From IMG/VR virus record IMGVR_UViG_3300037114_000074: a stretch of 22,845 bases of DNA. One strand, given 5' to 3'. The stretch comes from an uncultured virus (IMG/VR IMGVR_UViG_3300037114_000074). Taxonomy: Duplodnaviria > Heunggongvirae > Uroviricota > Caudoviricetes. Of the stretch, positions 388 to 18,505 are shown in pieces (positions within the stretch are counted from its first letter, which is position 1; every line of letters starts with the position of its first letter). The position numbers and the translations under genes were made by a program. Under the pieces are notes generated by a model. It ran no database searches. It saw only the letters and a list, made by a program, of their open reading frames with translations, and was not told where the DNA came from.

Positions 388-1911
388 TTACTCCACGTCC
401 ACAGCGTTGACGGTGAACTGCTGGATGTTGCCGCCGTCGGTGTAGTAGAAATAGATGTTTGGTGACGCCCGGGCGTTGCGCGCGGTAGCCCCCGGGTCCG
501 TCACACTCAGGTACCACCCTTGGTTCTCCAGCGTCGCCAGCGCCCCGGCGCTCAGGGCAGCGGTGATCTCCGCGTCCTGCGCGCCCGACAGGTCCACGTT
601 ATTCGTCCACGCGCCAAAGGTCCCCATCTGGTCGATGGCGCCCTGCAGCGCCTGGCGCACGCCGTTGTACCCGGCTTCCGTGTAGGGGACCCACTTGATC
701 GACGTGCGGTAGACCAGCAGATCGTTCTGCATCTGCGAATTGAAGTAGAGCTGGTTGATGTACGGGTCGATCCACTCCCACTCCCCCGGCATGCTCCCGG
801 GCTGCAGGAATTGGAACTGCGCCGTGCGCGTGGCCACATTGCAGTAGCAGTTGTAGCCATTGCCGACGAGGTTGTTGTAGACGGTGAGGCTGGACACGTC
901 CGGCGTGAGACCGGCTTGGCCCAAGTACGCGAAATCGATGCGCCCGTCTTCCTGCGTAAAGTCGATCGAGGCGATCGCGCCTAAGACGAAGGCTGCCTTG
1001 GTGGGATCCAGCCCCCACAGCGGGATCGTGCCGTTGTACTGGGCGGCCGTGAGCAGTGCGCCGAAGCAAGCGGCGTCGTTGGTTGAGGTCGAAGGCGTCG
1101 GGTCCGAGTCCCACGGGACGTACGCGTACTGCCCGTTCTGCTGGCTCGCCCACAAGGAGAACTGCAGCTTGAGCGGGCCGCCGGGGGCGCCGGCGTCCGG
1201 GTCGAACAGTGTGGTGAATGCCGCCCAGTTCTGCGTGGCCGCGATGATGGACGCCATCACGCCCGCCGGGGTGGCGATTGCAGCGCCAGCCGAAAGCACC
1301 GCGCCGAGCGTGGCCGTGAAGTTGAAGTCCGGGGAGAGCGAGGAGTCGGTGCCGTAGCCGACGCTGCTCGCGCTCCCGGTCGTGCCGCTGGTAATGAGGA
1401 AGGCTTGGCGCAGCACGTCGTAGGTCACGGTCGCGGTCGTGGTCGGGGTGCCCGCCTGCAGGCCGGTCTGGATGAGCGCGGCGGCGGCGGTAAAGCTGGA
1501 GGCAGACGCAAGGTTGATCGCGGCGGAGGTGTGGCTCACCCCGTCGATCACCACCGTGATGGTGCCGGAGAGCGCCTGGAGCTGCGCGAGCGTGAGCCCC
1601 GCGACCGAGCCGCCGCGCATGTAGCCCGCGACCACCGTGGTGTTGTACTGGACGAAGTAGAGCTCGGACGGGATCTGCTGCGCGCCGGTGAAGCCTGCGA
1701 AGTAGATGGCGGCGGCCTGGGCGTGCACCGAAGCCGGGCCGAACCACGCGCTCACCGCAGCCGCGCTACCGAAGCCCTGCACGGTGCCGATGGGGATGGA
1801 CGGGTCCTTCTGCAGGATTATGCCGTTCATCGAGAGCGGCACACCGGCGGCCGACAGCACCGACGGCAGGGAGCTCACGAACTTGGATGCGGGGATGGCG
1901 GCGATGGTCAT
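388..1911 (-). CDS. Tail sheath protein (DUF3383 type)
   Basis: 507 aa. N-terminal IPASKFVSSLPSVLSAAG, TQNWAAFTT, and C-terminal ARNARASPNIYFYYTDGGNIQQ match contractile sheaths of Bcep781-like myoviruses. It lies immediately upstream of the tube gene. Confidence 0.9.
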   Translation of the reverse strand: MTIAAIPASKFVSSLPSVLSAAGVPLSMNGIILQKDPSIPIGTVQGFGSAAAVSAWFGPASVHAQAAAIYFAGFTGAQQIPSELYFVQYNTTVVAGYMRGGSVAGLTLAQLQALSGTITVVIDGVSHTSAAINLASASSFTAAAALIQTGLQAGTPTTTATVTYDVLRQAFLITSGTTGSASSVGYGTDSSLSPDFNFTATLGAVLSAGAAIATPAGVMASIIAATQNWAAFTTLFDPDAGAPGGPLKLQFSLWASQQNGQYAYVPWDSDPTPSTSTNDAACFGALLTAAQYNGTIPLWGLDPTKAAFVLGAIASIDFTQEDGRIDFAYLGQAGLTPDVSSLTVYNNLVGNGYNCYCNVATRTAQFQFLQPGSMPGEWEWIDPYINQLYFNSQMQNDLLVYRTSIKWVPYTEAGYNGVRQALQGAIDQMGTFGAWTNNVDLSGAQDAEITAALSAGALATLENQGWYLSVTDPGATARNARASPNIYFYYTDGGNIQQFTVNAVDVE

Positions 1912-2444
1912 GTTGGGTACCTTACGTTGATGTCTACCAACTCGAGGTCAAGCTCGTCGGTGTACTGCTGCGGCGCAGTCACCACCGGGTTGTATTGCAG
2001 ATGCGCGTCCAAACACCACCGTTCTTCATACTGCGACTCCTCGTTGGTGAGCTGCACCATCCGCCCCTCGTTGCAGAAGAGCGGCTCGCAGTTGGGAGCG
2101 AGCGCGTTGCACCCGTAGGTGCTCTGGAAGGCGGTGGAGATGATGCTGGCCCAGGTGCCGGAGTGCTTCCCGTAGCAGTCGATCTGGAACGGGATCTCCA
2201 GCCCCTGCTCGATCGTGTAGTCGGTTGGCGCCTCCTCGGTGCCTTCAGGATACGTGTCGATCGCCATGCGCAGGCGCGCGGTGAACAGCGCCTGTATCGA
2301 GACGAAGCCCGGGGGGGAGGGCGGCATGGCGGCGCGGTTCGGCAGCCCGCGGATCACCGGCACGCCCGCGGGCAGCACGCCTGTCAAGAACGCCTCGAGC
2401 GCCTGGTACACCTGGTCCTGGTCGGGCGAGACGGACAGGCTCAC
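1908..2444 (-). CDS. Tail terminator / neck completion protein
   Basis: The likely start is GTG at 2444 (GTGA overlap with the upstream stop), giving 178 aa, MSLSVSPDQDQVYQAL. Motifs NRAAMP, QIDCYG, EESQYEERW and LQYNPVV. Canonical position before the sheath. Confidence 0.75.
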   Translation of the reverse strand: MSLSVSPDQDQVYQALEAFLTGVLPAGVPVIRGLPNRAAMPPSPPGFVSIQALFTARLRMAIDTYPEGTEEAPTDYTIEQGLEIPFQIDCYGKHSGTWASIISTAFQSTYGCNALAPNCEPLFCNEGRMVQLTNEESQYEERWCLDAHLQYNPVVTAPQQYTDELDLELVDINVRYPT

Positions 2445-2920
2445 GACTCGGTCCTCACGATCCGGCCCAGGGTATCCAGCGCCAACTGCCCCTGCGCGTT
2501 GACCGAGGAGTAGAGCCGGTCGAGCTGCAGCACCGCGAACAGCTTGGTCCAGCCGCCCTGCTCCACGTCCCAGCCCTCGTCCGGCTTCTGCACGAGCCAC
2601 GTGTCGTTTGGCGCGTCCCGCCCCTGCGGGAACAGCAACAGGTCCCCGCCGCGCTGGTTTACGCGCACGATGCCCTGGGGGTTGCTGCGCATGAACACGG
2701 TGCGGATGACGCCCTGCAGTTGCAGGAAGTCGATGTGCTGCACGTCGCGGGCCGAGGGCGGCTGCACCTGCATGCGCGCCGCGACCGCGGGCAGGTAGGC
2801 CGGCACCTGGCGGCCGTCGGCGTTCAATACCGAGCCCTTGGACCTGTACCACCACCCGAAGGTGTCGGGGTTGACCGCAGTGATCGCGCTGCGAACGATG
2901 GCGTGCAGATTCAGGCCCAT
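2441..2920 (-). CDS. Head-closure / neck protein
   Basis: Start ATG at 2920 after GGAG; 159 aa, MGLNLHAIVRSAITAVNPD...GIVRVNQRGGDLL. Recognisable neck-gene family preceding the terminator and sheath. Confidence 0.7.
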   Translation of the reverse strand: MGLNLHAIVRSAITAVNPDTFGWWYRSKGSVLNADGRQVPAYLPAVAARMQVQPPSARDVQHIDFLQLQGVIRTVFMRSNPQGIVRVNQRGGDLLLFPQGRDAPNDTWLVQKPDEGWDVEQGGWTKLFAVLQLDRLYSSVNAQGQLALDTLGRIVRTES

Positions 2921-8793: not shown

Positions 8794-9606
8794 TTAAGCA
8801 CGCAGGAGACCTGGGATCACAGAGCGCGACGTGCAGCGGCAATTGATCAATTCCCCTGGTTGGATTCTTTTCCCCTCGTCTGGGTCATACCAGCCGTCAG
8901 CTATTTTGAACCGTACCTTGTCGCGGCCAGCCTTGACGTGTGACGGCCGCGGCACCTTCCCGGCATTCGAGTGTTGCCACTGAGCCTCCACAATTCCGAT
9001 CTCGGCCCGCCGCGCGTTCTCCAGCACTGCCTTTGATTTGGCCACCTGGTCCCGGCTGATAAAGGCCGCCCGTCGATAGGTCACGCCGTACTTCTTGCGG
9101 ATCTCGGTAGATAGTTCGCCCATCGCGCCGCCCTTCATAACCGAGCGCCACACCGCGCTCTGCACGTCCTTGGCGAACTCCTGCGGTACCGACTTGATCA
9201 ATGCCACGTTCTCGGCCACAACGGCACGGTACGCGCTCACCATGCGTTCGGTGGGACGGAAGCGCACGGTAAATCCTGCCTCGCGCATGCGCCTGCGGAT
9301 CGCCGCATCGGTATAGCGCTGCGATTGCCCGGCGAAACTCGCGGCGATGTCCTTGGCCATGTCATCGAAACGCTTCTGCCAGGCAATACCCCACATCCGC
9401 AGCATTCTGCGCAGCGTCACGATCGGGTCATCGTCCTGCGCCAGACGCTCTGCAGCAGGGCGGTAGTGCGTGGCGAGCTTGCGCAGAATGTCAGCGGCCA
9501 TGCGGCGGGCCATCTCCTGCAGGCGCTTGCGATAGGCCGCCTCGATGCCGGCGTTCGGATGCACCGGACGCAGGACGCACTCAGGCCGCGTCGCGCTTAT
9601 CGTCAT
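8794..9606 (-). CDS. Minor head / head morphogenesis protein (Mu gpF, SPP1 gp7 family)
   Basis: Start ATG at 9606 (MTISATRP), 270 aa. Motifs RAAFISRDQ, WQHS...PRPSH and PGELINCRC; directly after portal. Confidence 0.88.
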   Translation of the reverse strand: MTISATRPECVLRPVHPNAGIEAAYRKRLQEMARRMAADILRKLATHYRPAAERLAQDDDPIVTLRRMLRMWGIAWQKRFDDMAKDIAASFAGQSQRYTDAAIRRRMREAGFTVRFRPTERMVSAYRAVVAENVALIKSVPQEFAKDVQSAVWRSVMKGGAMGELSTEIRKKYGVTYRRAAFISRDQVAKSKAVLENARRAEIGIVEAQWQHSNAGKVPRPSHVKAGRDKVRFKIADGWYDPDEGKRIQPGELINCRCTSRSVIPGLLRA

Positions 9607-11050
9607 CGGACTCTCCAGCGGTGACGTCCTGTTCTTCAGGTGGCTCCGGCACATCGTTAACATCAATACTGGAGTACCCGCTGTCAGGATCGCGAGCTAG
9701 TTTCTCGCGCACTTCCTCGGGCCTGAGCGCGCCCATATCCACGTACGCCGTGGCGGCCGTGGCTTCGTAATTCTTGATCTCCGCGCGCGCCCGGCCAGTG
9801 ATCTGTTTGATCGGGTGGAAGTCGAACGTGATCGAGGGATCAACTTCGCCATAGAGGTCCATCTGCACGATGTCCAACACGGTCTTGACGTTGTCGCGCA
9901 TCACCGCGCCCTGCTCGCTGCGGTTCCAGTCGTGATAGACCTCGATCTCCCCTTCGCTCGAGGCGGAGAGGCCAGACGGGGTAATGCCGGTCAGCACCAC
10001 GAGCGGCAGATGGGTCGGGGCTGCCATGTGCTCCTGAGCCTGGGCCTGCAGTTCCGAGAGCCCGGCGAGTGATACGGTGAGCTGCTCCAGAAGCTCGCGG
10101 TCCTTGTCGGTGAGGAAGACGCCCTGGTTGTCACGGTCGCGGGCAAAGAGCTTGATGCGCTTGAGCAGTTCGGAGTCAGTTTCACCCTGGAGCACGGCCG
10201 ACATATCCGTCTGCAGGTTGATGATCGAGAAGTTGCTGATGAGCTTGTTGACGCTGCCAACAGTCTTCAGCCACCGATCCACGTACGGCTCGATCAGCTG
10301 CGACAGGGACACGCCGCCGAAGTTAAAGGCGGGCTTGAGTATGTCCGGGATCTCGTGCGAGACAAAGCGCAGCAGCCTGCTCTGATGCGTCTCGCGCCCG
10401 AGCACCATCCAGCTCTCAGGCTTGTAGAAGTTCGGCGCCGTCGGGTCATTCGCGTTCCACGTGAGAGGCGTTGTCCACATGGGCTCGATGTTCACGAAGC
10501 CTTTGAGCGTGCCTTTCTCGATCCCCTCGAGAGTCAGCGGGTCTTCGTGGGAGCCCTTGTCCATCTGCACGAACACGTGTCCGAGCCCGAAGTAGCCGTC
10601 ATGCAGCAGTGCGCGGCGGAAGATGTCCTGCACGTTGAGTTCGTCGAAGCGCAGCTCGATGTCGGCGAGCTTGTCTCCCTCGCCTTTCTTGCCGGTGCTC
10701 TTGAACTCGATCCACTCGCGCGTCATGTCCTTGGCGTGCGTCTCCACGGGCTGGCGGAACTCCGAACGCTGCGCGAGCATGGCCAAGTACGGATAGCCCG
10801 GGAAGAACAGCTCGAAGCCGACCCCGCCCGTGTTGAGGAAGCCGCCGTAGGGCATGCCGCCTGAGTCGTCCATCGCAATGACGGTGCTGGCTCGTTCGAC
10901 CTTTTGACGCCGCACCGTGAAGGGCACGCGCGGGAGTGTGAGCGGGCGGCTGCGATAGCCGTGGGCGGGCAGCGGAGTTGGTGAGTCCTGCGCCAGGAGC
11001 GCATTGGAAACCTTCATAGGCTTCGGCGCAGATTGGCGCTTGAGGGTCAT
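9581..11050 (-). CDS. Portal protein (DUF1073 type)
   Basis: 489 aa. Motifs FPGYPYLAMLAQRSEFR, DMTREWI, FYKPESW and LTGITPSGLSASSEGEI; between TerL and Mu-F. Confidence 0.88.
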   Translation of the reverse strand: MTLKRQSAPKPMKVSNALLAQDSPTPLPAHGYRSRPLTLPRVPFTVRRQKVERASTVIAMDDSGGMPYGGFLNTGGVGFELFFPGYPYLAMLAQRSEFRQPVETHAKDMTREWIEFKSTGKKGEGDKLADIELRFDELNVQDIFRRALLHDGYFGLGHVFVQMDKGSHEDPLTLEGIEKGTLKGFVNIEPMWTTPLTWNANDPTAPNFYKPESWMVLGRETHQSRLLRFVSHEIPDILKPAFNFGGVSLSQLIEPYVDRWLKTVGSVNKLISNFSIINLQTDMSAVLQGETDSELLKRIKLFARDRDNQGVFLTDKDRELLEQLTVSLAGLSELQAQAQEHMAAPTHLPLVVLTGITPSGLSASSEGEIEVYHDWNRSEQGAVMRDNVKTVLDIVQMDLYGEVDPSITFDFHPIKQITGRARAEIKNYEATAATAYVDMGALRPEEVREKLARDPDSGYSSIDVNDVPEPPEEQDVTAGESDDDKRDAA

Positions 11051-11378: not shown

Positions 11379-11611
11379 TACTGCACCGGCGCCCAGGTCG
11401 GCTTGCCTTGACACTCGATCCACGCGCCGCCGGTCGTGTAGATGCGCCCGTCGCGCAGCGTCCCGCCCCCAGGGTTCTGCGTGTACATCGCGGCGATTTG
11501 AGTTTTGCAGTCCTGCGCAGAGGCGTACTGCAGCGACCCAGAAGCGGTGCAATAAGCTTGCGTCGAATTGACGGGCATGCAGATGAAGATCGCGTAGATC
11601 ATGGCGTTCAT
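11378..11611 (-). CDS. Small Cys-containing hypothetical protein (77 aa)
   Basis: GGAGG RBS, ATGA overlap with the TerL stop, hydrophobic N-terminus, four Cys. Confidence 0.65.
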   Translation of the reverse strand: MNAMIYAIFICMPVNSTQAYCTASGSLQYASAQDCKTQIAAMYTQNPGGGTLRDGRIYTTGGAWIECQGKPTWAPVQ

Positions 11612-13230
11612 GCGTCCTCCGGTTCAGAGTCCAGCAGCGCGTCGCTGATGCGTATCGGACGCCATCGCGGTGCGAACAGGATCATCAGTGCGTCGGCCCG
11701 GTTGGGAGACAGGGAGCCGTCGGGCATTTTGTCCACCACGACCTTGCCGCTCGCCGATGTCTTCCACTGCGGCTGCGACAATTCGATGCAGAGCTTTTGC
11801 ACATCTGGGATCGCGCTCGACAGGCTGATGAGGCTGTCCGGATCATACTCCCCGCCGGCAACCGCACCGTGCGTATTGCGAAAGAGGTCGCGCAGGTGGA
11901 AGTACGCCTGCGCCTTAGCGTTCTGATAGCGGTCCTTGGCCTTGACGTCAGTGCCTGGCACCAGCCGCTCAGGCTCGAATACGGCCGCCGATCCTCTGAA
12001 GTCCTGCACCCGCACCGAACGCAACTGAAGGGCTGCCTTGCGCCGGGCGAGAATCCGCTTGGCATCCCCGCGCACCCCGGCACCTAAGCCGTCCGCGTCG
12101 TAGTCGAAGCCGTCGAGATTCAAGTCATCGCACAGCTGGAAGGCGCGCTCTGTAGTGGCGAAGATGTCGGAGTTCTTGCCACTCCACACCTCACACGCAA
12201 GCACCGACATGCCATGGCGGGCTGCAAAGCAGTTGAGGTCCCGCCCCTCGTCCGCCACATCCAAGGCCCCACGGCGCACGCCCGTGGGTGTGAGTTTGAG
12301 CTTCTTATCGGCATCGACCGCGGACTGCACCCACTCCTGAGGAATGATGACGCCCTCGATGGAAGCGGAGTAGTCCAGCTCGTACTGCGAAGCCCACACG
12401 ACCGGATCACTCGCCCCTTTTTTGGCATCGCGCCAGGCGTCGTCCTTGCGCAAGTCATCGCGGTAGTGGTACGTGAAGACGGGCACGCGACCTGAATGCC
12501 GGCGCATCCCGAACCAGTTCGACATGCCGTTCACGCTCGACCAGTCGATGCGACAGTCGGTAGTGGCGATCAGTGATTGTTCGATGAGATCCGGGTGTTC
12601 GGTGAACGCCGACTCGTCCACGCCATAGATCGCCTTGCGACCACCCAGGCCAATGCGATCCCCCGCCTCACCCGTGATGCTCGAGCCGGTAGCAGGAAAG
12701 AGCAACCGCAGGTAGAGCGAGTCCCGATTCACATCCCAGCCGTTGCGAAACTCCACCGGCAGCAGCGACATGAAAGCGCGCGCCTTGTAGAACAGCGTGT
12801 CTGGATCCCCGGTGCGGTCGAGTTTGTCCTCTTTCGCCGATCCGACACCAATCATCATGCCGTCGTGAAACAGGCAAAGCGTGCAGGCGAGCGCCATAAA
12901 GAGCCAGCTTGCCCCAACATCGCGGGACTTCTCGATGAGGGCCGATTCGTTGTGGCGCCAGCGCTCGACGATCCAGTCGACCAGCTCTCGTTGCTTGGGC
13001 ATCAGCACGAAGGGAAGCGTCGTCGGGCGCCCAATGGCGACGTTGCGCGGGTCTACGGTGCACCCAAAATCATTGATGAAATCCGCAGGGTGAGTGCGGT
13101 AGTAGACACGCAGCCCCGGCAACATGTCCGGATTAGCGCGTAGGCGATTGATGCGTTCGACCCGAGCCTGGACTATTGCCAGGTAGTTGGGCTCCTTCCA
13201 GTCGAACAACTCTTCAGCGCGCGCGTTCAT
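11608..13230 (-). CDS. terL: Terminase large subunit
   Basis: 540 aa. Walker A-like EKSRDVGASW, Walker B YGVDESAF, nuclease motifs ALDVADEGRD and SPNRADAL. Confidence 0.93.
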   Translation of the reverse strand: MNARAEELFDWKEPNYLAIVQARVERINRLRANPDMLPGLRVYYRTHPADFINDFGCTVDPRNVAIGRPTTLPFVLMPKQRELVDWIVERWRHNESALIEKSRDVGASWLFMALACTLCLFHDGMMIGVGSAKEDKLDRTGDPDTLFYKARAFMSLLPVEFRNGWDVNRDSLYLRLLFPATGSSITGEAGDRIGLGGRKAIYGVDESAFTEHPDLIEQSLIATTDCRIDWSSVNGMSNWFGMRRHSGRVPVFTYHYRDDLRKDDAWRDAKKGASDPVVWASQYELDYSASIEGVIIPQEWVQSAVDADKKLKLTPTGVRRGALDVADEGRDLNCFAARHGMSVLACEVWSGKNSDIFATTERAFQLCDDLNLDGFDYDADGLGAGVRGDAKRILARRKAALQLRSVRVQDFRGSAAVFEPERLVPGTDVKAKDRYQNAKAQAYFHLRDLFRNTHGAVAGGEYDPDSLISLSSAIPDVQKLCIELSQPQWKTSASGKVVVDKMPDGSLSPNRADALMILFAPRWRPIRISDALLDSEPEDA

Positions 13231-13709
13231 TGGCCGATGAGCTTTGCGTAAACTTTCATCGCGTCCACATCAGTCATATCGCCGCCGACTAAAGCGACGG
13301 GAATGGGTCCACCATTCTTGCCACTGTGTTCCAGCGACTGCTTGACGCGCCATTCCTCTGGCTTGCGATTGCTGAGCCACAATGTAGCCGCGCCAACATC
13401 AGGCGCCACGTGCTCAGTGTACGGAACCAACAGCGGCTGGCCATCGCTCTGAAAGATTTTCACCGCCGCATGCGAATATCCAACAGCGCGGTGAAAGAGC
13501 GAAGTCTCGACTCGATCATCAGCGGCTTCCTTGCCCACCTTCAGTGCCTGACAAAAATCCGGGTATTCCGCCTTCCAGCGATAGAGCGTGCGCACGCATA
13601 CGCCGAGTTCTTCAGCGACTTCAAAATCAGTCGAACCTTTCGCGCACAGATTTGCTGCGCGCTGACAGAAGTCGGGCTGATAATCCGTGGGGCGGCCGCG
13701 CTCAGCCAT
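13227..13709 (-). CDS. terS: Terminase small subunit
   Basis: Start ATG at 13709 (TAATG overlap), 160 aa. GRPTDY, HTH EVAEELGVCVRTLYRWK, WLSNRKPEEWR and EHSGKNGGPI. Confidence 0.88.
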   Translation of the reverse strand: MAERGRPTDYQPDFCQRAANLCAKGSTDFEVAEELGVCVRTLYRWKAEYPDFCQALKVGKEAADDRVETSLFHRAVGYSHAAVKIFQSDGQPLLVPYTEHVAPDVGAATLWLSNRKPEEWRVKQSLEHSGKNGGPIPVALVGGDMTDVDAMKVYAKLIGQ

Positions 13710-14506
13710 TACGTCCCCTGCTCCTGCAGCGCCTGCATCTGCACCTGCCATTGCGCGATCGACAGCCCAGCGGGCGTGGTGCCGTTGGCTTCGACGAAGT
13801 CCCCGTCGATGAGGCCGTACGCCTCATCCACGAACGCGGCAAAGAACGCCGGCGTCATGGTGTAGAAGTTTCCCCACGAGATCACCACGTAGTTGCCGGC
13901 GGCGTCGTATCCGCACAGCACCACGCAGTGGCCGCCGACGATGGTTTGGTCAGCGGACGGGTTGACGTCCCACACGGAGCCCGCGGCGGTAAGCCCGTTC
14001 TCGAGGAACGCAGGCACGTCGAAGCCGATGTAGGCAACACCGCAGTCAGCGATCGTGCGTCGCACGTCCTCGGGCTTGCTCGGGTCCACCTCCACGAATG
14101 CGGTCAACTCCCGTCCGTTGAACCCGGTCTTCATCCAGTACGTCAGCACGTCCTGCTCGACGCCGCCCTGGTCGGTGGAAGGGTCGGCAGTGTTATACCC
14201 GCACGCGCCTTCGTACAGCGCCAGTACCGCTGGGTCAGGCGGGGTCTGCATCGCCAGCAGCGCGTTGTACGTCCACACCTGGTCTGCGTGTCCACAACCC
14301 GCACACGTACAGTCGCCCAACGAATTATTCAACATGACCCCAAGGTTCGATGGCATGCCAGTGCCGTAATTTATGGCCGTCGGGATCGGCGGCAGCGTCA
14401 CGCCGGCAATGAGCGCAGACAGGTGAGGCACGCGAGGATTGCGAGTCCGGGGGAGCCGACCGTACTTCAGATTGGGATTTATATACTTAACTCCCACGGC
14501 GCTCAT
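13709..14506 (-). CDS. Papain-like (C1-like) cysteine peptidase
   Basis: Start ATG at 14506 (ATGA overlap), 265 aa. N..LGDCTCA (catalytic Cys), GGHCVVLCGYD (His) and ISWG. Confidence 0.75.
   Translation of the reverse strand: MSAVGVKYINPNLKYGRLPRTRNPRVPHLSALIAGVTLPPIPTAINYGTGMPSNLGVMLNNSLGDCTCAGCGHADQVWTYNALLAMQTPPDPAVLALYEGACGYNTADPSTDQGGVEQDVLTYWMKTGFNGRELTAFVEVDPSKPEDVRRTIADCGVAYIGFDVPAFLENGLTAAGSVWDVNPSADQTIVGGHCVVLCGYDAAGNYVVISWGNFYTMTPAFFAAFVDEAYGLIDGDFVEANGTTPAGLSIAQWQVQMQALQEQGT
14474..14501 (+). repeat. Left terminal inverted repeat
   Basis: GGGATTTATATACTTAACTCCCACGGCG. Confidence 0.9.
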
Positions 14507-15405
14507 GCGAACAGCCTTTCCTGCGTGAGCGTTGCCGGGAGACAGGCTGGCGAATACCAGACGCACTCTCTATCCGTGGTTTGGCCGCCTGAATACGTGA
14601 GACGACCGCGCGACCACTCCACGGCGTCCCATCCATCTAGCGCGTAATCGCCCTGATGTCCGCACAAGGCGATCCGCAGGTGCTCGTTCGCGCGTGCCCA
14701 TGCCTCGACGGCATCGGCAACCGCGCCCGCTTTGCCGTAAAGCGCCTCGTATGACCGATAGGGCGGGTCCAGGAATACCGCTGCGTCATCGCCGCCGAAG
14801 TGATTGTTTAGGCAACGCGACCAGTCACCATGCGTCACGCGCACCCGCTCAAGCCTGTCAGCGATCCGATGCAGCCACGCCCATGCTGTGCGCCCGCAGG
14901 AGGTCAGCAAGGCATCTGCGCCCCTCCCGGCATCGCTCGCGTGCGGGATTTTGCCTATGGCCTGCACGCCCATCCCGGCATTGCCCGCGTGCGGGATTTG
15001 GCCGAACCAATCGCACCACCCAGAGCCGATCCAGCAGCATTGCCCCCACAGCCACCACCCGGCGACCTTGGCATCACCGGGCCAGTCCGGGTCTTGCATC
15101 TCCGCGCCGATGCGGTCGCGCTGCGCCATGAGCCATCCGTGACGCGCGCCGAGGTCAATGTGCGAGACCGGGTAATCCGCCCATTCCGCAACCGCCGCCG
15201 GTTGATGCTTGACCGCGCGCCAGAAATTGGCGATGAAGCCAGACCCGTCGCACACGACTTCAAGCGCAGCCGGGCGCGGCGCAGCCAGCAGAACCGCCGC
15301 CGATCCGCAGAAGGGCTCGATGTATTGCTTAGGCGATCCGAGCCGCGCCCACACAGCCGCCGCGACCGTGCGCTTCCCTCCGAAATATGGGAACGGGCTA
15401 TTCAT
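14503..15405 (-). CDS. DNA adenine methyltransferase (Dam/D12 class)
   Basis: 300 aa. PFPYFGGK, SAM-binding YIEPFCGSAAV and catalytic FLDPPY in alpha-group order. Confidence 0.9.
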   Translation of the reverse strand: MNSPFPYFGGKRTVAAAVWARLGSPKQYIEPFCGSAAVLLAAPRPAALEVVCDGSGFIANFWRAVKHQPAAVAEWADYPVSHIDLGARHGWLMAQRDRIGAEMQDPDWPGDAKVAGWWLWGQCCWIGSGWCDWFGQIPHAGNAGMGVQAIGKIPHASDAGRGADALLTSCGRTAWAWLHRIADRLERVRVTHGDWSRCLNNHFGGDDAAVFLDPPYRSYEALYGKAGAVADAVEAWARANEHLRIALCGHQGDYALDGWDAVEWSRGRLTYSGGQTTDRECVWYSPACLPATLTQERLFA

Positions 15406-15418
15406 AACCCGCTGATTT

Positions 15419-15446
15419 CGCTGTGGGAGTCAAGTATATAATTCCC
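15419..15446 (-). repeat. Right terminal inverted repeat
   Basis: The minus strand reads GGGAATTATATACTTGACTCCCACAGCG. Confidence 0.9.
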
Positions 15447-15453
15447 TTCAGAT

Positions 15454-15633
15454 TCATGGCCGTCGTCCCAATATCCCGCCGTTGTCGGCGCGCAGCACAT
15501 AAGGCACGGGAACCCGCGGATGCGATATGCGCCAGGCGTGGGCTATCGGGTCAACCGCAGGGCCTGCCTTGGGTTTGAACGCCGTGGCGAAGCGGCCGTG
15601 ATGCCGAGACAGTGACTGTAAACGCATCGGCAT
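15454..15633 (-). CDS. Small basic hypothetical protein (59 aa)
   Basis: GGAG RBS; MPMRLQSLSRHHGRF...GILGRRP. Fills the gap, and its stop overlaps the ATG at 15457. Confidence 0.5.
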   Translation of the reverse strand: MPMRLQSLSRHHGRFATAFKPKAGPAVDPIAHAWRISHPRVPVPYVLRADNGGILGRRP

Positions 15634-15635
15634 GC

Positions 15636-15857
15636 CTATCTCCTGCGAATCGCGCGCGCCAACTGCAGCCGGTGCGCCTTGCCGTAGAGCTGGTAGAGAT
15701 CCACGCCGAGCTTGTTGGCGAGCTCGTGCAGCGTCCCGGCTTCGCGCGCGCTATCGTACTCCGCAACCAGCGTCGTAATCATCTCGGCTGTCCACATGCC
15801 TTTGTGCTCGTGCGTCGGCTCAGGTGCTGAGGTTTGTTCTGTCACGGCTTCAGCCAT
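15636..15857 (-). CDS. GcrA-like HTH DNA-binding protein
   Basis: WTAEMITTL...ELANKLGV......GKAHRLQL resembles the GcrA N-terminal domain (WTxE...IAxxLG...GKAHRLGL). Start approximate. Confidence 0.6.
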   Translation of the reverse strand: MAEAVTEQTSAPEPTHEHKGMWTAEMITTLVAEYDSAREAGTLHELANKLGVDLYQLYGKAHRLQLARAIRRR

Positions 15858-15859
15858 CC

Positions 15860-16156
15860 TCACTGCGTAGCCGCAGCCGCAAGCAACGCCGGCGCGCTAA
15901 CATAGCGATTCAGAATCACGTTGTTGGCCGCCAACTGTTCCTGCACTGCGGCCAATTCCACGCGCGTCATCTTCAGCTCGTATACCAGCCGCGTGAGAAC
16001 GACGTTGGGCTTGCGCTCAATGGCGTGGCGAAGTGCTGTGTCGAGGCTTGTCACTACGGATTCCAGCGCTTTCAGGCGCGCGGAGGTTGGGTCATAACGT
16101 GCGGCTCGGCGAATCGGCGTCGGTTTGGCATGCTTGGTCTGTTTGTGCGTCGTCAT
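15860..16156 (-). CDS. Hypothetical coiled-coil protein (98 aa)
   Basis: GAGG upstream; heptad-like helix; tiles the operon. Confidence 0.6.
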   Translation of the reverse strand: MTTHKQTKHAKPTPIRRAARYDPTSARLKALESVVTSLDTALRHAIERKPNVVLTRLVYELKMTRVELAAVQEQLAANNVILNRYVSAPALLAAAATQ

Positions 16157-16159
16157 CCA

Positions 16160-16624
16160 TCACCTCGCTGTCATAATTCGTTGGATTTGCGCCAGCGCTG
16201 AACCGTCGGCTATCGCCGGCGCACAGTACTCCAGCACCCGGATCCCTGCCTCAACTGCGGCATTCATTTTTTCCCGATCGCGCGCAAATCCGCCCTGCGG
16301 CCCGCCGCGCAGATGGCGCCCGCGGTTGAACTCACTGGTCGCCCCGTGACACTCGATGGCGAGCCGGTGCGTGGGTGCGAACAGATCCAAACGCCAGCCA
16401 CGCTCTGGGTCAAAACGGTACTCGCGCACGAACAGGTACGAGAGCTTCACGGTCGAGAGTTGGAACAGCAGCGCACACACGTGCCGCTCGCGCTCTTCGC
16501 GTAACTCAGCCAGGCGCAAATCCCGCGCAGCGGGTGCCGTCGGCTTGACCACAGCAAGCCGCGTGCGCACTGAGTCGCGAACCGACTGCGGCAAATCCAG
16601 CACGCTGCGGATGCGTAGGCTCAT
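16160..16624 (-). CDS. PD-(D/E)XK endonuclease (very-short-patch/resolvase-like)
   Basis: REYRFDPERGWRLDL...LAIECHG...GRH.R...F.RDREKMNAA...G.RVL. Confidence 0.75.
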   Translation of the reverse strand: MSLRIRSVLDLPQSVRDSVRTRLAVVKPTAPAARDLRLAELREERERHVCALLFQLSTVKLSYLFVREYRFDPERGWRLDLFAPTHRLAIECHGATSEFNRGRHLRGGPQGGFARDREKMNAAVEAGIRVLEYCAPAIADGSALAQIQRIMTAR

Positions 16625-16962: not shown

Positions 16963-17204
16963 CTCATAAGCTCATAAGGTTCATAAGCCAATTCCCATGT
17001 ACACCTATACGGGAGTACAGTTTTACCAACGTGTGCTATAGGCATTGCCTTATGAACCCTATGAACCTTATGAGTTAGAACGGAATGTCCTCGTCAGGAA
17101 TTGACGTTTTTGACCTTGTGACCTTGTGACCTTGTGAGTCTGGCTCACTTATCGCGGCCTCATGCTCGCCGGAAACACCTTGTGATCCTTGTGATCCTTG
17201 TGAG
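16963..17204. promoter_or_regulatory. Probable replication origin: four triplets of CCTTRTGA-like iterons
   Basis: Triplets at 17048-17074, 17114-17137 and 17178-17204, plus an inverted triplet at 16963-16987, with a lower-GC spacer at 16988-17047. Located at the 3' end of the helicase gene. Confidence 0.65.
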
Positions 17205-18505
17205 GTACCTTGATCAGGCTCACAGGGTGGTTCCCCGATGTACACGTAGGCCTGCACTCGACTCTTGCCGCGCCCGGTAGGCTTCTCGCGGCGCCACCCG
17301 TCACGCACAAGTGCCCTGGCCGCAGGCCCTGCGATGCCACCTGATTTTCCTGGATCCTTGCGAGTCCCGATGTCAAAAACCTCCGCGAGCAGGTGTCGCA
17401 TTTCGATACGCTTTACGCCGCCGGCAACGAGCGCATCTGCGTACTGCAGAACATCGATATCGAGCGTTGATACACGAGCTCGTGAGGCCTGCTCTAGTCC
17501 TGCGCGCCGCGCCTGGTAGTCATCCAAATACCAAGGCTCTTTAGCCTCGTAGCGGCTCACGCCCTCCCCCCACAGTTGGGCCACGTCGCGCTTGAGGGCG
17601 GTGAGGTTGATTGCCGCGCAGTCCACGGGCCAGAAGCGGCGGGCCCCCGTGGCGTCCTGCAGGTACTCGTTCTCGTTTGTGGTGGCGATGAAGACGCTGT
17701 GCCGCGGCCTGTCCACGCTATTGCGCCCGTATGGCGGCCGGTAGTGGTCTATCCGGCGACTGATGAAGCCCTTAACAGCCTCCTGGTCTGAACGGCGTAG
17801 GCTCGTGAGCTCGGCCATCTCCCCGATCCACACGCTTTGGATGCCGATGGCTGCATCCTTGCTCGAGAGGTCGCCGGTGATATCCCGGGCCCACTGGTCA
17901 GCGCCCAGGATCCGTACCGCGGTGGATTTACCTTTCCCCTGCTCTCCTTCGAGTACGAGGATGGAGTCCATCTGACAACCGGGCTCAAAGATGCGTGCTA
18001 CAGCCCCAATGAGAAACTTTGGCCCCACGGCCTCGAGGTACGCGGCGTGGTCCTTGGCGCCGAGGTAAGCCTTTAGCCATGTTTCCAGGCGCGGCTTGCC
18101 GTCCCAGTCAGCCCGGCATTGGGTAAGGTAATCGCGCACCGGGTGGTAGGCGTGGTCCTTGGCGCGGCTCACAACCGTGTTGTGGACGGTACTTTCGCGC
18201 AGGGAAACGAAGCCTTGCGTCGTAAGCCACACCACGAGCTTTGTTACGTGATCGTCAGCCCAGGCGATTGGCTCATCATCGCCGAAAAACTTGTCGAGAT
18301 CGTCGCGCGGCATTCCAGGGAGTGGACGCCGGAGCTCAATGCGGTCGGAAAATTCGTCGTACTGCAGAATGTCCTTTAGTTCTGGCGCTTGATCCAGCGC
18401 GATCTGCACATTGCGTTCGTCTGGATACGGGTTGCCGTCTTTGCGGCGCACCAAGGAGCGCTTCCAGCCAGGGAATTCCGCGACAGCGTTTCCCACACTT
18501 CTCAC
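17075..18505 (-). CDS. VirE / virulence-associated E family P-loop helicase
   Basis: 476 aa. YHPVRDYL, WDGKPRL, Walker A GEQGKGKST, Walker B IGEMAEL, YRPPYGR and TTN...YLQDATGARRFWP. Confidence 0.9.
   Translation of the reverse strand: MRSVGNAVAEFPGWKRSLVRRKDGNPYPDERNVQIALDQAPELKDILQYDEFSDRIELRRPLPGMPRDDLDKFFGDDEPIAWADDHVTKLVVWLTTQGFVSLRESTVHNTVVSRAKDHAYHPVRDYLTQCRADWDGKPRLETWLKAYLGAKDHAAYLEAVGPKFLIGAVARIFEPGCQMDSILVLEGEQGKGKSTAVRILGADQWARDITGDLSSKDAAIGIQSVWIGEMAELTSLRRSDQEAVKGFISRRIDHYRPPYGRNSVDRPRHSVFIATTNENEYLQDATGARRFWPVDCAAINLTALKRDVAQLWGEGVSRYEAKEPWYLDDYQARRAGLEQASRARVSTLDIDVLQYADALVAGGVKRIEMRHLLAEVFDIGTRKDPGKSGGIAGPAARALVRDGWRREKPTGRGKSRVQAYVYIGEPPCEPDQGTSQGSQGSQGVSGEHEAAISEPDSQGHKVTRSKTSIPDEDIPF

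Follow-up and report, generated by a model that had tools for sequence, protein, structure and literature searches.

Restriction–modification and orphan methyltransferase genes lying within inverted repeats and 8-bp duplications are known from bacterial chromosomes, where, in the accessible text of the account, a transposase acting in trans has been suggested (Furuta, Abe & Kobayashi 2010; PMC2853133). Mobile insertion cassettes (MICs) and the passenger-carrying "transporter" insertion sequences (IS) of the IS1595 family are likewise, as far as the accessible part of the source goes, established concepts (PMC3129680). Here we describe a 973-bp segment (positions 14474–15446) in a 22,845-nt stretch of DNA from an uncultured tailed phage (IMG/VR record IMGVR_UViG_3300037114_000074; Caudoviricetes), the whole of which we call the window, and we interpret this segment as a non-autonomous derivative of an IS1595-family element, a MIC that carries a predicted Dam-type DNA methyltransferase gene. 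We put the probability of this overall explanation, mechanism included, at roughly 0.8; the identity of the element as an IS1595-derived, transposase-less methyltransferase cassette is, judged by its sequence and that of its relatives, close to certain. Such a kind of cassette is already known; what is new is a phage-borne family that swaps methyltransferases within a conserved translational frame.

Siguier, Gagnevin & Chandler are said to have described, in 2009, IS1595-family IS with passenger genes as "transporter IS", and De Palmenaer is said to have reported in 2004 the IS231-derived MIC231 of Bacillus cereus. With the transporter IS, our element and its relatives share the Zn-ribbon and DDE transposase of the autonomous copies, the inverted repeats, the 8-bp duplication and passengers that include methyltransferases; unlike them, the window element has no transposase, and the cassettes, mostly found in phage contigs, share a fixed 5' frame of ~50 nt, in which the start codon stands at position 42, and many of them also a fixed 3' frame. 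The likeness to MICs such as MIC231, in the accessible text on these, lies in IS ends without a transposase around one or more passenger genes, in a modular cargo and in movement that is thought to occur in trans, whereas here the IS family is another one and the cargo is almost only DNA methyltransferases, inside phage operons. To our knowledge, the conserved stop/start arrangement that we find at both ends has not been described for MICs. In the chromosomal units of Furuta and colleagues, too, imperfect inverted repeats and an 8-bp duplication enclose methyltransferase genes; in the accessible text of that paper, however, each is a case by itself, from a Xanthomonas or Neisseria chromosome and not from a phage, the repeats are others, and neither a link to a defined IS family across cargo types nor a conserved translational frame appears there. 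In the open-access literature we found no closer precedent in phages than these units. Integron gene cassettes resemble the present ones in being promoter-less, exchangeable single-gene units expressed from outside, a functional likeness only, since they move by site-specific recombination at attC/attI and not by DDE transposition with target duplication. Mycobacteriophage mobile elements (MPMEs) are likewise short inverted-repeat elements spread among phage genomes; they are of ~440 bp and are not known to carry a methyltransferase or to derive from IS1595.

A preliminary description of the locus, made from the letters of the window, had recognized 28-bp inverted repeats with three mismatches, an exact 8-bp direct repeat around them, and a methyltransferase open reading frame (ORF) that nearly fills the enclosed segment and leaves no room for a transposase, all of which we find as described. 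The parts of the element are the following.

14466–14473: target-site duplication, copy 1; TTCAGATT on the plus strand and AATCTGAA on the gene strand, where it supplies the interrupted gene with codons 2–3 and with two bases of codon 4
14474–14501: terminal inverted repeat of TTAACT type at the end where the cargo stops; of its three outward frames on the cargo strand, two are closed by TAA and only one is open
14503–15405, minus strand: cargo, predicted Dam-type (D12 class) N6-adenine DNA methyltransferase gene, 300 amino acids, 903 of the 973 nt
14919–15003, minus strand: 48-nt (16-amino-acid) in-frame tandem repeat, two copies, inside the methyltransferase gene
15419–15446: terminal inverted repeat of TTGACT type at the end where the cargo starts; belongs to the conserved 5' module of ~50 nt, which has the cargo ATG at element position 42
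15447–15454: target-site duplication, copy 2, again TTCAGATT

As returned by a repeat finder, the two 28-nt arms are complementary at 25 of 28 positions (89%) and 917 nt apart, and the two copies of TTCAGATT stand directly outside them, an exact 8/8 match that by our arithmetic has a chance of 4^-8. A degenerate 24-nt pattern of the terminus, allowing up to three mismatches, matches exactly two places in the window, the two arms, and gave 0.00 matches in 100 dinucleotide-preserving shuffles. No transposase occurs among the ORFs of the element or of the window, and with a cognate IS1595 transposase as query, tblastn on the window reached no better E than 0.31. The two ends, GGGAATTAT and GGGATTTAT, both fit the motif ggnnatTAT, which we take to be the end form of the ISNwi1 subgroup, to which the element may belong. 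Across cassettes each type of end keeps its own sequence, GGGAA..CTTGACT at the cargo start and GGGA[C/T]..CTTAACT at the far end, and the TTGACT/TTAACT asymmetry is seen again in one autonomous IS with the same ends; by this comparison, the three mismatches between the arms are an end-specific asymmetry and not decay.

The IS1595-family origin that the preliminary description had proposed is borne out by relatives in which the same ends enclose IS1595 transposases, in Dehalococcoidia as well as in metagenome and viral contigs. Five elements of 3.0–3.5 kb in three Dehalococcoidia genomes (G002–G004) lie inside the same 24-nt termini, and each encodes a 309-residue transposase (PF12762 and PF12760; NF033547 202 bits, cut-off 75), with 148.3 and 29.8 bits (PF12762 and PF12760) and 201.9 bits (NF033547, cut-off 75) for the copy L055. 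As passengers, 3' of the transposase, these elements (L055, L056, L057–L059) carry genes for a P63C-domain protein and then for an N6_N4 methyltransferase fused to HNH, and one genome (G004) holds three autonomous copies of identical length with different duplications. Further transposase-bearing elements with the same termini are L071, L127 and L020 (in-frame TGA), and copies at 60–66% identity occur also in metagenome contigs and two viral contigs; the transposases inside these termini have 309–314 residues with Zn-ribbon and DDE domains. In some of the autonomous copies, the ends agree with those of the cassette at 27/28 and 26/28 positions. By this comparison of termini, the cassette ends are those of an IS1595-family element. 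The transposase type is thus present in the relatives and the 8-bp duplication in the window; because no transposase is found in the element or the window, we class the window element as an IS derivative and not as an IS.

One multi-copy autonomous IS, whose 66-nt repeats hold a near-consensus promoter and a Shine-Dalgarno sequence, occupies at least 34 distinct insertion sites among the loci fetched (for example L101, L095 and L128); the terminal TTGACT provides the −35 box of this promoter (TTGACT-N16-TATAAT), and GGGGGAG and the ATG of the transposase gene come after it. The duplications of this IS resemble TAAATTTN, and it appears to be very active in some communities. Separately, a 1,589-bp transposase-bearing copy with a perfect duplication AAATGAAA lies in a 95.6-kb viral record rated 100% complete (L020:936–2524, the same as L060, in G006); its transposase frame holds one in-frame TGA and would be a pseudogene or recoded. 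Cargo-less miniatures of 160–217 bp with the same termini and 8-bp duplications were seen in one Thiotrichales metagenome-assembled genome (MAG; L033, L034, L039 and others), in a Terriglobia MAG (L036) and in L081, in several copies within one genome.

Scans for the repeat core gave 19 stretches on 14 viral contigs and 22 in reference genomes, and a tighter pattern of 22 specified bases gave at least 134 stretches in metagenomes. For the genome scan we estimate ~17 chance matches for 18 specified bases in 596 Gb, against the 22 found; 16 of these 22 loci show GGGA, which was not part of the search, just outside the pattern, and one shows GGTA. The other five (L022, L024, L031, L032 and L035) look like chance matches and were set aside, and none of the 22 reference-genome loci carries the cassette-type 5' module. 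Over everything fetched, we count at least 216 termini in at least 168 loci, 188 of them distinct, with the same termini recurring in unrelated taxa.

Pairing of these ends gave a non-redundant set of 35 elements, namely 22 transposase-less ORF-bearing cassettes, 5 cargo-less and 8 transposase-bearing. DNA methyltransferases of four Pfam families fill 18 of the 22 cassettes (D12 in 5; N6_N4, in two size classes, in 10; C5 in 1; Dam PF05869 in 2), and the remaining four carry a MazG-like protein, TnpB and two small ORFs without assignment, so that other cargo between the same ends, down to the cargo-less copies, is indeed found; 16 cargo proteins were typed by Pfam and six (L066, L073, L078, L084, L092 and L120) by BLASTP clustering with those. 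Known IS-family ends, no transposase and a passenger gene, the features by which a MIC is recognized, are present in the window element as in the 22 ORF-bearing cassettes. The TnpB unit (L093:1305–2524) is 1,220 bp long, has the same terminal repeats around a gene for a TnpB RNA-guided nuclease (NF040570 276 bits, cut-off 100) and lacks a target duplication; it may be a chimeric assembly.

Cassettes with unrelated cargo are alike well beyond their repeats, sharing 42–63 nt at the cargo-start end (window against C5 cassette, 41/42; against N6_N4 cassette, 49/51) and 18–49 nt at the other (window against L016, 48/49). In all 40 distinct 5'-module termini the cargo ATG lies at position 42, and a stop meets each of the three entering frames: a TGA within TTGACT at position 15, a TGA that overlaps the ATG at 43, and TAG or TAA at 47 (at 50 in one terminus). 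With two exceptions, positions 1–51 are conserved at 90% or more, and conservation drops after ~52; since it extends into the cargo, the 5' module would supply the first three to four cargo codons (MNS/MSS), as a 3' module of the window type would the last ones (..QERLFA). The window copy belongs to a large, previously undescribed family of cassettes that carries different methyltransferases between phage genomes.

Perfect 8-bp duplications flank 25 of the 35 paired elements; all 25 differ, they are 84% A+T, and the mean G+C of the flanks is 59%. Two more elements match at 6–7 of 8 positions. The window's own D12 cargo (85–97% amino-acid identity) stands between four different perfect duplications, TTCAGATT in the window, AAATTAAA in L008, ATTGCTTT in L078 and CTTAAAAA in L094, as its delivery by transposition, put forward in the preliminary description, would predict; the same cargo occurs in L073 without a duplication. 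An additional cassette, with the duplication GAAAATTT, spans the ends of a circular 52.6-kb viral contig.

Sampled words of positions 13700–16200 were compared with 24 listed public sequencing runs (16 studies), and in four of these runs a share of 0.94 or more is present. These four come from three studies, one of which is possibly the source of the window; the two further studies hold 0.94–0.96. Because the phage with its insertion is present in runs of these two further studies, the insertion is not lethal to it. In about 12 runs, of metagenomes from peat, freshwater, lake, bog, moss and fish gut, ~0.3 of the words are present, near the share of the cassette. We examined contig coverage along the stretch in four of the 24 runs. 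In a freshwater run (X7), cassette pieces differ from the window by 0–2 letters per 105–304 nt, the phage flanks are essentially without cover, and other sequence adjoins both cassette ends; in a permafrost run (X2), cassette depth is 22–102 against 15–20 for the flanks. The near-identical cassette without phage flanks in the one run and its higher depth in the other suggest a recent or current spread of the cassette. Two runs with 0.58–0.59 of the words (X5 and X20) were considered as flanks without the cassette and rejected: they hold low-depth fragments of both flanks and cassette with no joint that skips the element, and the part left uncovered there is not evidence of absence. A contig joint in X7 (14495>15413) skips 917 nt with a side of 24, below the guide for reliability, and may be a cargo-less copy or an assembly artefact; it was not used.

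The cargo bears the motifs FPYFGGK, EPFCGSAAV (motif I, residues 30–38) and FLDPPY (motif IV, residues 211–216). It matches PF02086, the D12-class N6-adenine DNA methyltransferases, with 33.1 bits (cut-off 22) over residues 7–69 only, as well as phrog_56 (DNA methyltransferase), and TIGR00571 with 34 bits, below the cut-off of 115. In an AlphaFold model built with 30 homologues (predicted local distance difference test, pLDDT, 68.7; predicted template modelling score, pTM, 0.72; residues 123–165 of low confidence), the top Foldseek matches in the PDB are E. coli Dam, Mcbe1, T4 Dam and DpnM, with probability 1.00 and template modelling (TM) scores of 0.5–0.6. Motif I near the N-terminus, DPPY after a central variable region and a Dam-like fold, which together mark the D12 class, are thus all found, and the cargo is predicted from sequence and model to be an intact Dam-type DNA adenine methyltransferase gene.

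The tandem repeat, with the 16-residue consensus IPHA[SG][DN]AG[RM]GVQAIG[KQ], falls where the model is of low confidence, after motif I and before DPPY. The 48-nt unit is present in two copies in the window, four in the closely related viral contig G001, four in L008, six in L094 and one to five in database homologues (284, 300, 316, 332 or 348 residues); it may tune specificity or be a fast-evolving linker. Homologues of the protein form 5,101 clusters (90% identity) at E <= 1e-5 among 8,000 candidates scored. Many lie on contigs of ~1.0–1.3 kb, the size of the cassette itself, and homologues at 95–100% identity are found on many contigs of this length; the more distant ones (63–72% identity), which lie on long contigs, have different termini and are in some cases joined to a ParB-like or Rho_N domain. 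Because of these different termini and extra domains, the cassette gene seems to have been captured, in trimmed form, from a methyltransferase family that is widespread.

The preliminary description had the element inserted in a phage operon, and we likewise find it on the same strand as the terminases and upstream of them; it missed that the site lies directly after the start codon of a gene. The features at the two junctions are these.

13709–14473, minus strand: body of the interrupted phage gene (phrog_19005, function not assigned), codon 2 onward
14504–14506, minus strand: read-out ATG overlapping the cargo stop (ATGA; TGA at 14505–14503); its frame exits via the terminal repeat into the interrupted gene
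14515–14522, minus strand: Shine-Dalgarno-like AGGAAAGG, 8 nt upstream of the read-out ATG, in the conserved 3' module
15398–15457, minus strand: 19-codon mini-ORF created by the insertion, MNLKGIIYLTPTAKSAGYE and a stop, from the orphaned native ATG to a TAG 2 nt after the cargo ATG
15454–15633, minus strand: upstream phage ORF of 59 amino acids, its stop overlapping the native start of the interrupted gene
15455–15457, minus strand: native start codon of the interrupted gene, overlapping the TGA (15456–15454) of the upstream ORF and now severed from the gene body

Read from the duplication onward (NLKYGR...), residues 2–249 of the window gene align to positions 3–255 of the 260 in the phrog_19005 profile, and in a related phage contig (L192) an uninterrupted homologue (83% amino-acid and 76% nucleotide identity), with no terminal repeat nearby, begins MTGVKYGR at an ATG that overlaps the upstream stop. 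Because of this overlapping start in L192 and because the profile alignment reaches the N-terminus, we place the native start at the ATG 15457–15455; by these alignments, the cassette landed right after the start codon of the phrog_19005 gene, at the junction with the upstream 59-residue ORF.

A consensus scan of positions 13600–16300 found no sigma-70-like promoter and no terminator-like site on the cargo strand. Autonomous copies have TTGACT-N16/17-TATAAT/TACAAT, of which the cassettes keep the TTGACT and lack the −10 box. An own promoter in the cassette was rejected on these grounds, which leaves read-through transcription from the phage operon as the simplest assumption. The geometry of the mini-ORF suits termination–reinitiation. 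At the far end, the predicted read-out product begins MSAVGVKYINP, continues into NLKYGR... and totals 265 residues, using the only open outward frame of the terminal repeat; in L008 the cassette sits two codons after the GTG start of a nuclease-like gene (phrog_93; weak VRR_NUC match) with its read-out ATG again in frame and is, as read from the letters, an independent instance of the same arrangement. In most cases the insertion is just outside a gene, whose own start is preserved. The cassette in L012 is 21 nt before the ATG of a RusA gene, within the last codons of the upstream gene, and that in L014 is before a DnaJ-like gene (26.5 bits, below cut-off). An N6_N4 cassette (L110:540–1245) has entered a Mu-type transposase gene (PF09299, rve) precisely at its start codon, and there the duplication TTTTTCAT regenerates the ATG on the downstream side. 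A preference for A+T-rich targets in G+C-rich phage DNA would alone steer insertions to gene junctions. The read-out ATG as a device of the whole family was considered and dropped, frame 0 not being enriched among the exits of 23 3'-module termini.

We propose that a cassette which retained the two asymmetric terminal repeats of the IS, with a Dam-type methyltransferase gene in place of the transposase gene, would have been moved in trans by an IS1595-type transposase, which an autonomous IS of the host cell or of a co-resident phage would have provided; one cargo between four different duplications and near-identical copies in other surroundings are indirect signs of such movement. It would have arrived in the tailed phage by transposition with 8-bp duplication of an A+T-rich target, at the junction of two translationally coupled phage genes, directly after the phrog_19005 ATG and upstream of the terminases. 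There it is probably transcribed as part of the phage operon; the 5' module, by closing all three incoming frames at or near the cargo ATG, would hand ribosomes over to the cargo, and the ATG at the cargo stop, after AGGAAAGG, would read out in frame and so give the interrupted gene an 11-residue N-terminal extension rather than a knockout. The phage would likely benefit by methylation of its own DNA against host restriction, as judged from known phage orphan methyltransferases. A bolder extension, for which the odds are against us and which we offer as tentative, is that these are phage-adapted, promoter-less "plug-in" cassettes, more than decayed IS copies, in which D12, N6_N4, C5 and Dam genes are swapped between a fixed 5' frame, which would halt incoming translation and pass ribosomes to the cargo, and a fixed 3' frame, which could restart translation through the terminal repeat; insertion into dense, coupled phage operons, and even into the first codons of a gene, could then occur without polar damage.

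Several observations weigh against this reading. Eight of the 35 paired elements match at fewer than 6 of 8 duplication positions; for seven of them, which come from short metagenome contigs, the cause may be chimeric assembly across a repeat. Neither a source of transposase for the window cassette nor its host was identified. In X2, the flank contigs reach 30 nt into either terminal repeat; 31 letters would be needed to count as bridging, so that these contigs give a hint only. Megablast of 13700–16200 against the GenBank phage collection gave no match, a scan of viral contigs with a 30-nt flank found G001 alone, and no exact empty-site allele of the phage with one copy of TTCAGATT was seen in GenBank phages, four sequencing runs or viral contigs. 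The empty site that the preliminary description had looked to in related phages thus exists at the protein level, as the uninterrupted gene of L192, and not as an exact allele: L192, the sole uninterrupted allele, is a relative at 76% nucleotide and 83% amino-acid identity with a different upstream gene. The Pfam and NCBIfam matches of the cargo are confined to its N-terminal ~70 residues, and the cargo ATG is preceded by a weak Shine-Dalgarno-like sequence only. Lastly, the exit frame 0 is the longest open one in ~6 of 23 distinct 3'-module termini, no enrichment over one third, and the conservation of both modules could reflect what transposase binding needs rather than translation.

These last two points feed an alternative that we consider somewhat unlikely, in which the element is the same IS1595-derived cassette and its insertion knocks out or truncates a dispensable phrog_19005 gene, the ATG and stops being by-products of conservation for transposase binding. 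The terminal 40–60 nt are typically required for IS transposition, phrog_19005 has no assigned function, and the insertions in L012, L110 and L014, outside genes with starts of their own, need no read-out. Yet both copies that lie in the first codons of a gene, in the window and in L008, are in the read-out frame, with a chance of ~1/9 for both; AGGAAAGG stands 8 nt before the read-out ATG, the conserved 5' module runs past the repeat to include the start codon and TAG, the N-terminus of the phrog_19005 family is conserved right up to the insertion point, and the insertion-bearing phage persists in runs from three studies. A different doubt concerns what the methyltransferase is for. It might not be anti-restriction at all, and instead be a selfish hitch-hiker or serve the cassette or the host through epigenetic regulation, as a packaging mark or against another methylation-sensitive defence; the methyltransferase–HNH fusion and P63C protein of the autonomous Dehalococcoidia copies suggest cargo with its own agenda, and a few cassettes carry other cargo (MazG-like, TnpB, small ORFs). 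We think this unlikely, since methyltransferases of four unrelated Pfam families in 18 of 22 cassettes point to selection for DNA methylation and anti-restriction is an established role of phage orphan methyltransferases.

That the cassette is a fossil, a single old transposition now fixed and immobile with the methyltransferase domesticated as an ordinary phage gene, would agree with the missing empty allele in the runs and viral contigs examined, with the lack of a transposase in the window and with the same insertion in G001 and in runs X2–X4. It is made quite improbable by the near-identical cassette with other flanks in a freshwater run without this phage, by the excess of cassette over flank depth within X2, by the 95–100% identical homologues on many contigs of ~1.0–1.3 kb, as expected of a current multi-copy repeat, and by the conserved asymmetric termini that both ends keep. 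To the idea that the repeats are a chance or structural feature around a native phage methyltransferase gene we give practically no credence: nothing more than the absence of an exact empty site speaks for it, and against it stand the shuffles without a match and identical termini in at least 168 loci from unrelated taxa with distinct 8-bp duplications. An IS1595-derived cassette moved in trans is the explanation that we retain.

It is usual to regard the orphan methyltransferases of phages as static "morons". In the present case, one IS1595-type pair of ends frames at least four unrelated methyltransferase families, and contigs of phages and metagenomes from peat, permafrost and freshwater, among other habitats, hold the same ends at dozens of distinct A+T-rich sites. 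If these cassettes are mobilized in trans and translationally coupled, they would offer phages a route to gain or exchange methylation specificities quickly against restriction, and they would be an example of a transposable element shaped for harmless insertion into compact operons. Were the tentative plug-in extension true, this would amount to a transposon-borne, integron-like exchange of anti-restriction specificities among phages. Phages are reported, in the accessible text of the source, to tolerate insertion sequences poorly (PMC3429520); under the same extension, an IS family could use these normally poor IS hosts as vehicles. Natural methyltransferase variants with one to six copies of the 16-residue repeat provide testable material, beside defined ends and candidate transposases.

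The wider window is that of a tailed phage, in which the cassette lies just upstream of the packaging module, on the same strand.

388–1911, minus strand: DUF3383 gene
1908–2855, minus strand: neck terminator gene
8794–9666, minus strand: Mu F-like gene
9581–11050, minus strand: portal gene (PF06381)
11608–13230, minus strand: large terminase gene (phrog_2)
13227–13751, minus strand: small terminase gene (phrog_309)
between the small terminase and VapE-type genes, minus strand: several small ORFs
17075–18505, minus strand: VapE-type primase/helicase gene

The viral contig G001 represents the same phage, with two blocks at 100% and 99.8% identity and 96 extra nt in the internal methyltransferase repeat, and is not counted as independent. 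Close to the insertion, a 14-nt direct repeat (13/14, ATT[T/C]ATGGCCGTCG) occurs at 14369–14382 and 15452–15465, the latter where the interrupted gene natively starts and the former ~100 nt into that gene; it is probably due to chance.

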